The position numbers and the translations under genes are program-made. The notes under the pieces were generated by a model. The model saw only the letters and a program-made list of their open reading frames with translations. It made no database searches and was not told the DNA's origin. 64,000 nt of DNA from an uncultured cyanobacterium (GTDB lineage: Bacteria > Cyanobacteriota > Cyanobacteriia > CAKZMO01): positions 128,001 through 192,000 of the forward strand of contig CAVRCJ010000005.1 in the NCBI GenBank assembly GCA_963719515.1. Reading direction: 5' to 3'. The first letter of the stretch is position 1; each line of letters opens with the position of its first letter. Below, piece by piece: positions 5,697-61,975 of the stretch.

Positions 5697-6102
5697 AGGA
5701 CGGGGCTTTAGACCCATGATTTTTGGTAAAGAACTATCACCAAGAGCCAGAACACAGACCAGCGTAAAAAGCGATTGATGCCCAGCCGCCGCTTCAAGGA
5801 AAGCTGATGGTCTAACCCGTCGAGGAAGCGCGATCGCAGCTCGACCAAGCGCTCCTGCCAACCCTCTATTTCGTTTTCGCCTGTCCCGTTTTCGTCACCG
5901 TGATCACGTTCGACGACGGGCATCGACGGTGCCTCTTGGGCATCGAGTAGAATAGCAGCCTGCTCGGCCTCACGGCGCTGCAGCACTTTCCGGCGGCGTC
6001 TGAGGAGCCAGTGTAGCCACAGCAATGCAGCGGAAATAGCAGCCATTCCCGCAAAGATTCCGCTGGCTCGCAGTATCTGGGGGGTAATCTGATCTCTGGC
6101 TT

Positions 6103-6494
6103 GTGACATCCTCCCGACGCTGACAGCAAGCTGTACAGCGCGGGCTTCCTCAGTGACTCCCAGCTATTGCCGAGACATATCCTGAGATAGGTTTATACTC
6201 CGCCTGATGCCCCACGGCAGAGTTTTGAATTTTCATCTCCGCGAGGGAGGATACGCACTATGTGTCGCAGATACATTTGCAAACTGAGGAACGGGTGACT
6301 TGCAGCTTTCGCCTACGGGCCCGTCACACTCTTTGCGGGGTGTATCACCTTGCTATCTCTATCATACCAACTGCTAGCCTCAGCGCTGAGCGCACTATCC
6401 GCTGTGCATCATTTTGCGGGCGCACTTCGGCTAGCGCGACTCTCATCCCGACGCTCACCCTGACGGGTAGAGCGCGGGGCTTCCTGTCTAGTAG
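6103..6494 (-). mobile_element. Non-autonomous IS200/IS605 mini-element B (392 bp), inserted 3' of TTAG inside mscS
   Basis: Same end hairpins as element A; precise removal restores the mscS frame. Confidence 0.88.
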
Positions 6495-37675: not shown

Positions 37676-37977
37676 AGGAAGATTTTACGGGAGACCCTCA
37701 GCTTATCTAGGCTTCTGGGGGCTTCGCCCGCCTGCGAGGGCGAAGCGATTCTTTGAAGGGGCGATCGCGAAGTGAGCCTGCAGCGCTGATCGCCTAGCCT
37801 TTTACCACCAGGGCAATATGCTCCAAGATCTAATTGTGCCATTCCTGAAAAAATGACTCACCTTCAGCGCGCGTGAGGTGGAGCCGCTGCTCGGCGTCTG
37901 CTAGCGTTGTGATGGCATTCGGAGTCGCAACTGACATCGGTCGTAAATGGGCCAGAACCCTGCTCGACTAGTCTTAT

Positions 37978-38390
37978 AGAAGACGCCTTATATCCCACCG
38001 CTAAAGCGGTGGGATATAAGGCGGTGAGCGCAGCGAACAATCCCGAAACCCTCACCGTTACTGGGATTTGCTATAATAGAGATGGTCAATGACCCACCCG
38101 AGACGCAGACGCAACAGACAGCCTAACGTGACGAAATCGGCAACAAGCTGATGGCGCGGACAGCTCGGTAGACCGGGAAAAGAGGATAGGGCAACGGAGA
38201 CGACCCTAGAATCAACAATCAACATAGAATTCCTTGAATTCAACAAATAAGAACCGCAGGGCTTGCGGGGATAGTCTGTGGAGCGACCGTAAGACCGGAA
38301 AGGCTTAGGCCTCGAAGGCAGGTGCTATGAAGCAGAAAAATCTTGGAGCGATCCAAGAATCCCACGTGCTTTAGCCGTGGGAGAAGTCAA
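37978..38390 (+). mobile_element. Non-autonomous IS200/IS605 mini-element C (413 bp), related to the tnpB element at 60508-61866
   Basis: Left end AGAAGACGCC..CCCACCGCTAAAGCGGTGGGATATAAGGCGGTGAGCG after TTAT. The last ~115 nt closely match the right end of the 60508-61866 element and finish GTCAA. Confidence 0.9.
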
Positions 38391-38410
38391 TGTATGGCGT
38401 TGGTATGGGT
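38253..38410 (+). ncRNA. Predicted TnpB omega-RNA (right-end scaffold plus flank-derived guide)
   Basis: Corresponds to the tnpB 3' end (TAGLAGIVCGATVRP-coding sequence) through the right-end hairpin, which is the known position of TnpB omega-RNAs. Confidence 0.6.
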
Positions 38411-38485
38411 TGAGTTGGCGGCGATCGCAACAGGGAAATCTGCGCGGGGTATGATAGCGCTTTAAGCGACTGTAGGCGTGGGACG

Positions 38486-39780
38486 ATGACTAGCCGCCAA
38501 GAGATGGAAGACCTGCTCGATGAAATGTACAATGCCTTTTCTCCTACGCCGCTACAGCCAGGAGACCCGGCCTATGTAGATTGTCGGGCCGTTCGGGGGG
38601 ATGAGGATGTGCTGGAGGATCTGGGGCGCACGGTAAGGCGATCGCAGATTTTGACCTACCAACTCTATTCCGGCTACCGGGGCTCGGGGAAAACTACAGA
38701 GCTGCTGCGGCTGAAGAAGCACTTAGAAGACAAAGGCCACGTGATGGTCTACTTCGCGGCGGATGAGGAAGACCTCAGCGTCCAGGACGCCCGTACACCG
38801 ATATTTTGCTGGCCTGCACCCGGCACCTGCTGCGCAAACTCGACGAGGCCAACCCAGACCCAATTCTCGACTGGCTGAAAGGGCGGCTCCGCGACCTAAA
38901 GGACGTGATGCTGACTGAGATTAGCGCAGATGACATCACCATAGAGGTGGGGCTGAAGGAGTTCGCTAAGCTGACGACGGCGGTGCGCCGAGAGCCGGGC
39001 CAGCGGCAAAAGATTCGCGATCGCATTGAGCCCCACACCGAGACGCTGATTCAGGCGCTGAATGCGTTTATTGCCGATGGTAAAGGGCAGCTACCAGAAA
39101 AGACAAAGCTGCTGGTGATTGCCGATAACCTGGACCGCATTGTGCCGATCTTTCGCGACAACGGACGCAGCAACCACGAGGAGATCTTTCTCGATCGCCA
39201 CGAGCAGCTAAAGGCGCTGGACTGCCATATTATCTACACGGTGCCGATTTCGATGGTCTATTCTCGCTGGGCCACGGAGCTAAAGGACAACTACGGCATT
39301 CCGCAGGTGCTGCCGTCGATTATGGTGCGGCAGGAGGATGGTGAGCCTTACGCTGCGGGGTTGGAGAAGCTGCAGGAGATCGTTCGGCTGAGAGTACCGG
39401 AGCATTTGCGGGCGTCGCTGGTGCCGGAGGTGTTTGAGTCGGTGGAGGTGCTGCAGGAGCTTTGTTTGATCAGCGGCGGCTATGCGCGGGATTTGGTGCA
39501 GCTGATGCAGGAGGCGATCAATAGGACGGAGACGCTGCCGATTCGGGCGCGGGCGGTGCAGCGGGCGGCGGATTCGCTGCGGGATGTGTATCGGCGAGCA
39601 GTGGAGGAGGACCAGTGGGCAGTGCTGCGGGAGATCCACAGCGATAGAAAGATCGATAATGGAGAGGTAGAGCGGAGCTTGCTGTTCAGCCGCTGCGTGC
39701 TGGAGTATCGCTATTACGATGCGCAGGGCAGTAAGCAAACCTGGTATGACGTTCATCCGGTGTTGTGGAAGGAGCTGTAG
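38486..39780 (+). CDS. P-loop AAA/STAND-like ATPase (one apparent frameshift near 38790)
   Basis: Walker A GYRGSGKTT, Walker B LLVIADNLD, SGGYARD, C-terminal WYDVHP. Confidence 0.85.
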
Positions 39781-59041: not shown

Positions 59042-60511
59042 ATGAGCGACCTTGTGTTGATGTCAGCGCATCAGCTGGCAGCTCTGATCCGCGATCGCCA
59101 AGCGTCAGCGGTGGAAGTTCTTGAGGCTTACCTCGTTCAAATCGCCGAGCGCAACCCCGCCCTCAACGCCATCTGCACCCTGGATGAAGCCGGAGCGCGG
59201 CAGCGAGCTGAGCAGGCGGACGAGGCCACCGCTCGGGGCGAAGTTTGGGGACCGCTGCACGGCGTCCCCATCACTATCAAAGATATTTTTGAAACCGCTG
59301 GTCTACGGACGACAGCGGGCTACATCCCCCTCAAAGACCATGTACCGTCTGAGGATGCCACTGCAGTAGCCCGGCTCCGGGCTGCAGGAGCTATCATCCT
59401 CGGTAAAACCAATATGGCGGAGCTGGCGGGAGACTACCAAAGCACCAACTCTCTGTTCCCTAGGGTCAACAACCCCTGGAACCTGGACTACACGGCGGGG
59501 GGAAGTTCTGGGGGCAGCGCCGCCGCCGTCGCTGCTGGCCTCTCGCCCTTAGACCTGGGCAACGACATCGCCGGTTCGGTTCGCCAACCGGCTCATTTTT
59601 GCGGCGTCTATGGCCTCAAGCCTACCGACCGCCGCGTGTCCACCGCCGGACAAATTCCAGAGGTGCCGGGAATGCCGACCTGTATCCGTCACCTCATTAC
59701 GGTCGGCTGCTTTGCGCGATCGCTCGAAGATATCCAGCTCTGCTTCTCCCTGATTGCGGGGGCAGACCGGCGTCGCGCCGATGTCCCCCCGGTGCCGCTA
59801 GACATCCCCTCTAACAGGTCGCTTCAGGAGATCAAAATCGCCTGGAGCAGCGAATGGCCTGAGGTGCCCGTCGCCCGCGACATCCTTAACGCTATGACCA
59901 CAGCGGCGGCGGCTTTAAGTGACGCTGGCGCTCAGCTTGAGGACTGGCGTCCCCAAAATTTCGACCTCTCGGCAACGCTAAACCTTTATACCAGGCTCGT
60001 GGCCTACCTGATGGTCTACGCCCAGCCGGTAAACCGCCACACCCTGCGGCGATCGCTCACTCAAATTTTTCGTACTGCAACCCAGGGAGACCGAGAGCTG
60101 CGGCAGCTGGGCAACTTTGCCGCAGTCCTGCCCGAGCTGCTGAATCCAGGACTGAAGGGATACTTTGAGGCGCTTACCGAGCGCGATCGCTTCATTACCG
60201 CAATGGAAGAGGCTCTAGACCCCTGGGACGTTTGGATTACGCCGGTTGCCGCTACGCCCGCCTTTACCCACCGCCCCGCCTGGAGCGCCATTGAAATTGA
60301 GGGACGACTATACCCGCATGTAGTTGCCAACGGTGCCTACGCGATGCCGTTTAACCTGAGCGGTCACCCGGCGGTGACGGTACCGATTGGACAGACTCCA
60401 GAGGGGTTACCCTTAGGCCTGCAGATCGTGGGCAAGCGCTGGCGAGAGCTGGAGCTGTTGGCGATCGCGAAGCATGTGCAGCGCGCCTGCCGCAAAACGC
60501 CATACACTTGA
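59042..60511 (+). CDS. Amidase signature family protein; stop codon lies in the adjacent IS end
   Basis: GPLHGVPITIKD, GGSSGGSAAA, GNDIAGSVRQPA. Confidence 0.92.
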   Translation: MSDLVLMSAHQLAALIRDRQASAVEVLEAYLVQIAERNPALNAICTLDEAGARQRAEQADEATARGEVWGPLHGVPITIKDIFETAGLRTTAGYIPLKDHVPSEDATAVARLRAAGAIILGKTNMAELAGDYQSTNSLFPRVNNPWNLDYTAGGSSGGSAAAVAAGLSPLDLGNDIAGSVRQPAHFCGVYGLKPTDRRVSTAGQIPEVPGMPTCIRHLITVGCFARSLEDIQLCFSLIAGADRRRADVPPVPLDIPSNRSLQEIKIAWSSEWPEVPVARDILNAMTTAAAALSDAGAQLEDWRPQNFDLSATLNLYTRLVAYLMVYAQPVNRHTLRRSLTQIFRTATQGDRELRQLGNFAAVLPELLNPGLKGYFEALTERDRFITAMEEALDPWDVWITPVAATPAFTHRPAWSAIEIEGRLYPHVVANGAYAMPFNLSGHPAVTVPIGQTPEGLPLGLQIVGKRWRELELLAIAKHVQRACRKTPYT

Positions 60512-61866
60512 CCACTCCCACGGCTAAAGCGCGTGGGATTCTTGGATTGCTCCAAGACTTTTCTGCTTCGTAGCACCTGCCTTCCGAGATTTGCTCTCTA
60601 TGCGCGAAGCGCAGGCTTGCCAACGGGTCTTACAGTCGCTCCACAGACTGACACCGCTAGACCAGCGGCCAATACGTTTACAGCGGCGTTTACGTCTCTA
60701 TCGTGCTTAACGTCGCACTCAGGGCACTGCCACTGTCGAATGTTCGACGGCAGCTTATCTACGACGTGGCCGCAGCTGCCACAGCGCTTAGAGCTAGGGA
60801 ACCAGCGGTCTATCTTGACGAGCTCTCGCCCGTACCATTCGCACTTGTAGGTAAGCTGCCTCACCAGTTCTCCCCAGCTCGCATCACTGATGGCCGCGCC
60901 AAAGCGTGATTATGGACCATGTTCACCGCTGCTAAGTCCTCAACGGCGATCGCTTGGTTTTCGCGCACCAGCCGGGTTGTCAGCTTGTGTTCGCGAAGCG
61001 TCCCGAAGGGAAGCAGGTCTTTGCGGGCATTGGCTATCTCGGCGTGGACCCTGGCCACCCTGAGCCGCGCTTTGTATCGGTTGTTCGAGCCCTTTTGCTT
61101 GCGGCTGAGCGCCTTTTGAGCTTTTCGTAGCTTGCGGTACTTAGCCCTGAAGCCCTTGGGGTTGGCAATCTTCTCGCCCGTGCTCAGCGTGACCAGACTG
61201 GTGATGCCCAAGTCCAGGCCAACTTTGTTAGGAGATACCGGCAGTGGCTCAATGTCCACCTCCACCAACAGCGACACAAACCACCGACCTGCAGGCGTCA
61301 GCTTGACCGTGATAGTCGATGGTGCGGCAGCTTTCGGAAGCGCCCTAGACCATCGAATGGGCAGCGCCTCAGAGCACTTAGCCAAGTAGACTTGCCCCTC
61401 TCTAAACTTGAACGCCGCCTTGGTAAACTCCGCGCTACCGCCGTTGCGCTTCTTCTTGAAGTTGGGATACTCAGCCCGACCCGCAAAGAAGTTAGTGAAG
61501 GCGGTTTGCAGATGCCTCAGCCCTTGCTGAAGGGGAACCGAGCTAACCTCAGTAAGAAATTCAAGGCCCTCCTCTTTTTTCCACTGGGTCAGCATCGACG
61601 AGGTTTGAGCGTAGCCGACGCGCTCTTGCTTCTGGTACCAGGCCTCAGTCCTTGCCGCCAAAGCGCGGTTGTAGACCAGGCGAGTACACCCCATTGTCCG
61701 GCGCAAGAGGTTGTTCTTGCCCCACAGTAGGATAGAAGCGATAGCGGTAAGCCCTTTGAACCATGCTTACAGCTTAGCGCTCGCTGTGTAAGATGTGGAT
61801 GTGTTCGCTAACGCTCACCGTCTTAATATCCCACCCCTAAAGCGGATGGGTTTTACGGCGACTTCT
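60508..61866 (-). mobile_element. IS200/IS605 (tnpB-only) element
   Basis: Left end AGAAGTCGCCGTAAAACCCATCCGCTTTAGGGGTGGG; right end CCCACGCGCTTTAGCCGTGGGAGTGGTCAA. Confidence 0.9.
60598..61764 (-). pseudogene. tnpB: TnpB with apparent frameshifts near 61720 and 60895 and an in-frame 21-nt insertion
   Basis: MVQRAYRYRFYPT start; GLDLG, AVEDL, CGSCG/CPEC, HDRDVNAA across three ORF pieces. Confidence 0.85.
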
Positions 61867-61975
61867 AAAAGTTTTGAGACTACACTCTCTGTATCTGCGC
61901 CCCCCAGAGCCCCTCAGAGCCTCTCAGCAGCGAGGAGAATGATACGATAGGGCTTCACTGCGTTTCAGGTCTTTT

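Follow-up and report, generated by a model that had tools for sequence, protein, structure and literature searches.

What lets a guide RNA work once it has been separated from its nuclease gene? This open question is touched by mini-C, an element without an open reading frame (ORF) in a 64,000-nt stretch of DNA from an uncultured cyanobacterium (GTDB lineage Cyanobacteriia, CAKZMO01; assembly GCA_963719515.1, contig CAVRCJ010000005.1, positions 128,001 to 192,000 of the forward strand), the whole of which is referred to here as the window. Direct reading of the sequence delimits mini-C as a complete ORF-less IS200/IS605 element of 413 bases, at 37978-38390. Observation establishes its anatomy, its copy number, the homology of its scaffold to TnpB-linked scaffolds, a promoter box, a covarying fold and the lack of an adjacent tnpB gene. 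We consider it probable that mini-C is a protein-less, non-autonomous IS200/IS605 element (palindrome-associated transposable element, PATE) whose cargo is a promoter-driven, long guide RNA for TnpB.

An earlier note on this DNA, made from the letters alone, had described an element with the ends of the tnpB element at 60508-61866, in which a promoter and an unrelated RNA segment stand in place of the gene. In a MAFFT alignment with the reverse complement of 60480-61900, the two elements were homologous from the left end up to ~38060 and again from ~38253 to 38390, and bases 38084-38252 had no counterpart, confirming that both ends are homologous, that the middle segment is unrelated to the tnpB element and that the 3'-end sequence of tnpB resumes where indicated. 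The extended -10 element was likewise read at the position given for it (Table 1). Both subterminal hairpins are common to ~9 tnpB elements of the genome that contains the window. The ORFs overlapping mini-C are chance ones of no more than 63 aa, and the family alignment contains no conserved ORF, its indels not being multiples of three and its bases showing pair covariation.

Table 1. Positions in the window of the parts of mini-C, of the supported fold of its 5' RNA domain and of the related tnpB element.
Feature	Position	Strand	Basis or remark
TTAT target / transposon-adjacent motif	37974-37977	+	immediately 5' of the left end
Left end with subterminal hairpin	37978-38060; hairpin 37984-38023, 18 pairs	+	alignment to the 60508-61866 tnpB element
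Extended -10 element TGCTATAAT	38069-38077	+	direct reading
5' RNA domain core	38083-38214	+	model R1, 111.5 bits, E 1e-28
Fold part: 5' hairpin			
Fold part: closing helix P1	38097-38104 with 38171-38177		
Fold part: arm	38121-38123/38153-38155 and 38137-38141/38147-38151		
Fold part: hairpin H3	38187-38191/38204-38208		
A/C-rich linker and variable hairpin H4 (GAATTC palindrome, 38227-38241)	38215-38252	+	alignment A3
Hairpin H5 (CCGC...GCGG)	38254-38268	+	first part common with the tnpB 3' coding end; MAFFT
Omega-RNA scaffold core, RAGATH-18-like	38270-38338	+	model R2, 77.2 bits
Stem-loop	38341-38358	+	
Right-end hairpin	38361-38381	+	
TCAA cleavage end	38387-38390	+	
Putative guide segment, flank outside the right end	38391-38406	+	predicted; 16-nt length assumed
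Related full-length tnpB element, pseudogene	60508-61866	-	broken reading frame

The segment without a counterpart belongs to a 5' RNA domain of ~170-190 nt, whose first 132 nt were used for a covariance model, R1. We aligned 39 R1 matches, divergent ones included, with this model (alignment A5). In A5, whose fitting to the model favours structure, 96.8% of the cells were paired, as against 86.3% in shuffles and 22-47% with slid partners, a large margin, the slid controls arguing that the fitting is not the whole effect. Compensatory changes on both sides were found in 20 of the 28 pairs, and none of 500 shuffles reached any of the measures observed in A5. The supported fold comprises a 5' hairpin, the closing helix P1, an arm and hairpins H3 and H4, with invariant unpaired stretches between these parts; at the position of H4 every family member has a hairpin, differing in sequence (A3). 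The TAGGG/CCCTA stem proposed earlier is present as H3 and covaries (helix 7), and the GCTG...CAGC stem proposed with it lies outside the supported fold, its bases pairing within the arm. RNAalifold, applied to the whole RNA, returned 50 pairs, 17 of them with compensatory changes, including the scaffold helices and the right-end hairpin; it also returned a long-range GAC/GUC pairing between the 5' domain and the last bases of the element, which is invariant and hence uninformative. These results indicate that the 5' domain is an independent RNA fold supported by covariation. The extra 5' module foreseen by the earlier note is thus real, structured and recurrent, as the covariation and the R1 matches show, and the middle segment is neither unique to the locus nor a fragment of a protein-coding gene.

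Elsewhere in the window R1 found nothing above 9 bits. Searches of Rfam yielded only tRNA at gathering cut-offs over the whole window, only a sub-threshold RAGATH-18 match and noise at the locus with E up to 10, and nothing relevant at five related loci with E up to 1. These searches bear on whether the 5' domain is a ribozyme, self-cleaving or IStron-like, that trims or splices the transcript. Such an activity would suit a multi-helix junction with invariant unpaired bases, and IStrons do fuse a structured RNA 5' of an omega-RNA inside IS ends, with ORF-less PATE forms, according to the part of 10.1101/2023.11.20.567912 that deals with them. We nevertheless find a ribozyme very improbable, since no group I or II intron, hammerhead, twister, HDV-like or other ribozyme was matched at these same E values, and since the internal promoter lies directly before the domain, leaving no upstream exon to splice. 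In addition, a group I intron would usually be longer than ~190 nt.

The promoter box recurs with the domain. Within the genome that contains the window, TGCTATAAT is kept in four of the five mini-element copies, C15 having TATAGT. Among 70 distinct elements of the family, 58 have a match to TATAAT at five or six of its six positions no more than 25 nt upstream of the conserved start of the RNA, and in 38 this match lies exactly 5 nt before TGGTCA, as it does in mini-C. From this arrangement we infer a transcription start at ~38083-38086, ~6 nt after the box. Conservation of the sequence begins exactly at this predicted start, not at the left-end hairpin. The 12-mer round the -10 box, TATAATAGAGAT (38072-38083), recurs with one change as TATGATAGAGAT (6355-6366, minus strand) in a second small element of the window, element B; these are the only two matches in the window, compared with a mean of 0.13 in shuffles, so the near match between the two promoter contexts was correctly noticed.

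The same observations weigh on the alternative that the fold acts in single-stranded transposon DNA, for example in TnpA excision or integration, and not in RNA. Elements of the IS200/IS605 group move as single-stranded top-strand DNA (10.1101/2023.03.14.532601, in part), which is the same strand as the RNA, so that strand-specific pairs (G-T) cannot separate the two readings. However, throughout the family the -10 box keeps a constant spacing to the first conserved base, conservation sets in at the predicted transcript start, and the domain is dispensable for the transposition of full-length elements whose ends are of the same kind. An action at the DNA level therefore appears highly unlikely to us.

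A search of the whole genome returned 41 matches to mini-C, five of which span the middle segment at 88-100% identity: mini-C itself, three further full copies (C15, C14 and C3) and one copy with its 3' end cut off (C20). All five are preceded by TTAT, and the four full copies end in GTCAA and pass into flanks that are unrelated on both sides. Seven of the eight left ends of this end-type in the genome follow TTAT, the exception being the broken tnpB element of the window, which sits after TTTT, and TCAA closes 14 right ends of this type, beyond which the flanks are unrelated. Mini-element insertions thus lie 3' of a fixed tetranucleotide, with a fixed right-end site and without target duplication. 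Another genome contains two copies that are 100% identical at different sites. The four copies other than mini-C are 94-98.5% identical among themselves. Compared with these copies, mini-C has 77-80% identity in the left-end spacer and 95% in the 5' RNA segment; its scaffold is 94-97% identical to those of the three other full copies. Compensatory changes between copies occur at the right-end stem-loop and hairpin, and also at A3 columns 336-356 and 371-421.

A separate observation concerns the flanks. The 11 bases outside the right end of mini-C (38391-38401) recur, with a one-base offset, immediately beyond the right end of the broken tnpB copy (60497-60507, minus strand), 22 kb away. This 11-mer occurs only five times in the genome, and chance seems unlikely; the left flanks of the two elements have TAGTCT in common.

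We then asked of the wider family whether the RNA is accompanied by a protein gene, using the intact TnpB and a Y1 transposase of the genome as tblastn queries against flanks of up to 1.5 kb at genome loci and up to 2.5 kb at metagenome loci. Neither a tnpB nor a Y1 gene adjoined the RNA in sense orientation at any of 114 genome loci or 114 metagenome loci. TnpB-like ORFs were found at two of the genome loci, one on the opposite strand and ~1 kb away (L078) and the other with none of the three check motifs (L060), and no Y1 gene was found near the 114 genome loci; at metagenome loci there were three TnpB-like ORFs, all more than 1 kb away and none sense-oriented after the RNA start. The candidate role of the 5' domain as a 5' untranslated region of tnpB or tnpA was rejected, such a downstream gene being absent from both sets of loci. 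Likewise, none of the 228 loci was found to contain a progenitor in which an ORF separates these parts.

This last result also counts against regarding mini-C as an inert remnant, a decaying deletion derivative with no present function. It is true that the full-length tnpB copy in the window is a pseudogene, that one of the five mini copies is truncated at its 3' end and that truncated copies exist in another genome, G051. Decay does not, however, sit with compensatory changes in 20 of 28 pairs, with RNA parts kept at 94-97% in three full copies against 77-80% for the spacer, or with an RNA unit that retains 75-86% identity across distant cyanobacteria. Of all the explanations weighed here, inertness is disfavoured the most.

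The 3' part of mini-C ties it to TnpB. We built a covariance model of the scaffold core, R2, from 41 representatives; beyond its match to mini-C (Table 1), it scored 52.7 bits (E 1e-11) at an intact tnpB element of the same genome (L011, encoding a 413-aa TnpB) and 60.6 bits at a 390-aa tnpB element of the distant genome G040 (L185), in which H5 lies inside the TnpB reading frame. Compensatory changes support H5 (A3 columns 227-231/238-242) and the scaffold helices (A3 columns 249-331, 336-356 and 371-421). The homology of the scaffold reaches the TCAA at 38390, and the flanks beyond differ between copies; the guide itself, placed at 38391-38406 by the rule for TnpB guide RNAs (PMC10691335, in part), is a prediction. 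We discarded the idea that the 5' domain arose by duplication of this core, as no R2 match fell inside any 5' domain.

Helper genes are present elsewhere in the genome. The Y1_Tnp family (PF01797) has 14 matches, nine of them full-length and without stops, so Y1 (HUH) transposases, one or more of which may recognise the hairpins of mini-C, are available in trans. Of the ~9 full-length tnpB elements whose ends are like those of mini-C, four (C3, C6, C13 and C15) contain intact 413-aa TnpB frames. The C3 protein (L011:320-1561) has HTH_OrfB_IS605, OrfB_IS605 and TNB zinc-ribbon domains, and its translation shows the GLDMG, VEDL and HDRD motifs (D/E/D). The tnpB element of the window has at least two frame breaks and a longest ATG-initiated ORF of 277 aa. 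The intact 413-aa frames (L011:320-1561, C6, C13 and C15) read through the guide scaffold almost to the right-end hairpin, and the proteins differ from that of G040 by a 9-residue insertion ahead of a conserved HKLTT motif.

To see how widely the RNA unit occurs, we followed it beyond its own genome. Segment 38078-38256 was present in three of 61 related genomes, its own included; in the distant genome G040, the same omega-like 3' part again comes after it. In contigs representing one genome per species, a 19-base word from the segment matched at least 120 loci, with ~9 chance matches estimated for a word of this size; among 80 listed titles of these matches six were non-cyanobacterial, and all six came without the accompanying motifs. 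The full motif check was passed by 72 of the matches listed, representing 70 distinct sequences, and the carriers include Microcoleus, Tychonema, Moorena, Calothrix, Tolypothrix, Nostoc, Leptolyngbya, Nodosilinea, Roseofilum, Snowella, Chroococcopsis and others. A second word, taken from the first bases of the RNA, located 114 metagenome loci. A regular expression for the full architecture was passed by 36 of 63 metagenome loci, being too strict to count intact elements. The 19-mer had no match in viral contigs, and the five plasmid records that matched did so in the 3' scaffold only, at up to 38% coverage.

Most of these relatives have a left-end hairpin of the CCGTCC...GGACGG type and a right end of the form CACCG...CGGTG AGGATGTCAA. 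Their ends mostly differ from those of mini-C, indicating that in the genome of mini-C the RNA unit is framed by ends belonging to the local tnpB subfamily. The 5' module and the scaffold are one old unit distributed over many cyanobacterial orders. The idea that tnpB had been replaced is therefore right in that mini-C is an ORF-less element with the ends of a tnpB element, but not in that it suggests a local event.

The distribution is nonetheless patchy. Among 151 genomes sampled evenly across the class, R1 matched 12, belonging to 10 of 80 genera, with one to five copies each, and R2 in 34. Scaffolds without the 5' domain numbered 14 against 5 with it in G000, the respective counts being 5 and 2 in G040, 6 and 1 in G068, 6 and 2 in G136, and 7 and 2 in G151; the domain-free copies that were checked, in G000, G040 and G061, were linked to tnpB. 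Conversely, the domain itself occurs on other scaffolds. G023 has the same left-end type and a related 5' domain, followed by a different 3' part, which without the domain follows TnpB genes encoding proteins ~30% identical to the TnpB of our genome (two of four loci tested). G065 (L176 and L180) has a related domain ahead of a right end of a third type, which resembles that of element B. The weak R1 matches are therefore real variants, and the 5' domain is portable, being joined to at least three scaffold types. Finally, three copies in G051 (L166, L175 and L179) keep the left end, the promoter and the 5' domain and have lost the scaffold and right end; they have changes at otherwise invariant bases, and this genome has one weak scaffold match only.

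These associations give some substance to a further rival: the 5' domain could function by itself, for instance as a regulatory RNA or by binding a host protein, and travel between IS200/IS605 ends, with the omega part serving only to retain the element or to end the transcript. A domain that is joined to at least three unrelated scaffold types, that keeps invariant single-stranded motifs, that is under stronger constraint than the left-end spacer and that persists in three G051 copies after loss of the scaffold could be such a cargo. Apart from the mutated G051 remnants, however, the domain is always found together with IS ends and an omega-type 3' part, no Rfam family matches it, and its presence in only 12 of 151 sampled genomes, at low copy number and changing sites, fits a selfish element better than a host function. 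On balance we judge an independent cargo RNA unlikely, although less so than a ribozyme, a DNA-level role or an inert remnant.

Our preferred reading, a long TnpB guide RNA carried by a non-autonomous element, can be set out as a series of steps. Transcription would begin ~6 nt past the TGCTATAAT box and yield an RNA of ~300 nt, made up of the ~170-190-nt 5' accessory domain and the ~135-nt omega-RNA scaffold, that would continue across the right end, so that its last ~16 nt would be copied from the flank and could act as the guide. Y1 transposases (TnpA) encoded elsewhere in the genome would move the element, and its RNA would be loaded in trans onto TnpB from intact full-length elements. After excision, the TnpB-RNA complex would cut the restored site, TTAT plus guide, and repair from the sister chromosome would copy the element back, as in the homing model of Meers et al. 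(10.1101/2023.03.14.532601, in part).

The 5' domain most likely has a supporting role, needed by a stand-alone guide but not by one embedded in an mRNA. TnpB is reported to trim its own mRNA into a guide. The domain occurs only on guides without an upstream mRNA and is compatible with unrelated scaffolds, which points to an accessory role: it may protect or fold the primary transcript, or present it for loading onto TnpB or for 5' processing. Compatibility with unrelated scaffolds further suggests a partner, or a property, that does not depend on a particular TnpB. We tentatively raise the possibility, which we would not yet favour, that the 5' domain is a portable guide-gene module, consisting of a promoter and a folded RNA leader, able to turn any TnpB right end into a free-standing, trans-acting guide gene by way of a common partner. 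A conserved surface of TnpB would serve as this partner, or else a host factor that binds or processes RNA, and the module would have moved among at least three lineages of TnpB with only ~30% identity.

Several results weigh against mini-C being a guide-RNA element of this kind, besides the model-fitted nature of A5. A strict sigma-70 scan of the locus gave no promoters, because there is no good -35. In four same-genus genomes no clean empty site was found, as their difference from the window extends over 37690-38753, more than the element itself. Identity between the scaffold and its counterparts in full-length elements, most of which have a longer variable stem, is only 76-83%, so recognition of mini-C RNA by the local TnpB is assumed. 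Rfam RAGATH-18 (RF03064) matched 38275-38338 at 22.7 bits and E 0.09, below its 44.9-bit cut-off. Lastly, no TnpB system is known in which the 5' domain plays a role, and TnpB-linked guides do without it, so the RNA may act other than, or beyond, guiding.

Protein-less elements encoding omega-RNAs that are used in trans are already known, and RNA-only IS605 elements are less novel than the earlier note held in calling them little described. The omega-RNAs that PATEs often encode have to be used in trans (10.1101/2023.03.14.532601), and stand-alone omega-RNAs are reported to work in trans (PMC10691335), as stated in the relevant parts of both sources. Like PATEs, including the omega-RNA-encoding PATE-like elements of Geobacillus stearothermophilus described in part of the former source, mini-C has no protein gene, has ends resembling those of full-length elements in the same genome, is multi-copy, has its scaffold at the right end and would depend on TnpA and TnpB in trans. 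Unlike PATEs as that part presents them, it has a covarying ~170-190-nt 5' RNA domain behind its own -10 box, this domain is conserved over many cyanobacterial orders and on several scaffold types, and its inner sequence was not found in any full-length progenitor. Similarly, mini-C resembles the stand-alone omega-RNAs of Altae-Tran et al. 2021, as summarised in PMC10691335, in being a mobilised guide gene without effector or transposase in a genome that also holds effector-bearing loci; it differs in its accessory domain, none being mentioned for those RNAs in that summary.

Comparison with other structured RNAs is also instructive. RAGATH-18 is the core of the guide RNA (reRNA) of IS607 TnpB, according to part of PMC11061315, and in mini-C the outer stem and consensus bases of RAGATH-18 are present in the core at 38275-38338. 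From the same part, the IS607 reRNA likewise has conserved 5' and 3' flanking motifs round its core, but its 5' flank is ~50 nt as compared with ~190 nt in mini-C, which moreover has IS200/IS605-type end hairpins and no adjacent tnpB. IStrons, in which a group I intron is fused to a TnpB omega-RNA, similarly place a large structured RNA 5' of the scaffold in one IS element; in comparison with their description in part of 10.1101/2023.11.20.567912, mini-C has no intron signature, an internal promoter and a much smaller domain. The trans-activating RNA (tracrRNA) of Cas12k (type V-K), which occurs in the same phylum, is a long structured RNA that partners a TnpB-derived protein, much as the RNA of mini-C would partner TnpB. 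We rejected it as the identity of the 5' domain, given no similarity in 20 cas12k loci (best R1 match 10.6 bits, E 0.48) and rare co-occurrence: Cas12k was not found in the genome of mini-C and is present in only 3 of 12 genomes with the 5' domain.

We found no description of the 5' domain or of this cyanobacterial element family in the literature, supplements not covered. What appears new is a covarying ~190-nt 5' domain without a family in Rfam 15, its spread among cyanobacteria and its union with at least three scaffold types. The domain, present at hundreds of cyanobacterial loci, appears only on guides freed from the nuclease gene. If it stabilises, folds or loads the guide, this would explain how RNA-only parasites compete for TnpB, would suggest add-on modules for the guides used in TnpB genome editing and would exemplify a stage on the way to guide RNAs with genes of their own. 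Should the portable module outlined above prove true, it would represent a natural step from transposon-embedded guides towards separately encoded ones of the tracrRNA/CRISPR kind, and a new class of structured RNA specific to cyanobacteria.

Some further observations concern elements related to mini-C. Element B (~6100-6370, minus strand) is an ORF-less RNA element with a similar -10 context and a different RNA and right end (...GGGAGGATGTCAC); it gave no match to R1. The earlier grouping of mini-C with elements A and B as one recurrent RNA-only class thus stands for the recurrence of the mini-C module, but element B does not have this module. In G040, a second hairpin-rich repeat of ~90 bases (L033 ~1770-1860 and L035 ~1330-1410) interrupts the scaffold of one long-RNA copy and, in the opposite orientation, replaces the promoter region of the other. 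G057 and G118 contain 22 and 16 matches to the scaffold core, none with the 5' domain, and look like large expansions of a related tnpB family.

Downstream of mini-C, the same-genus genome G003 aligns with the window only from ~38754 onward. The ORFs at 38486-38878 and 38806-39780, which overlap but are read in different frames, appear to be a single P-loop NTPase gene split by a frameshift.

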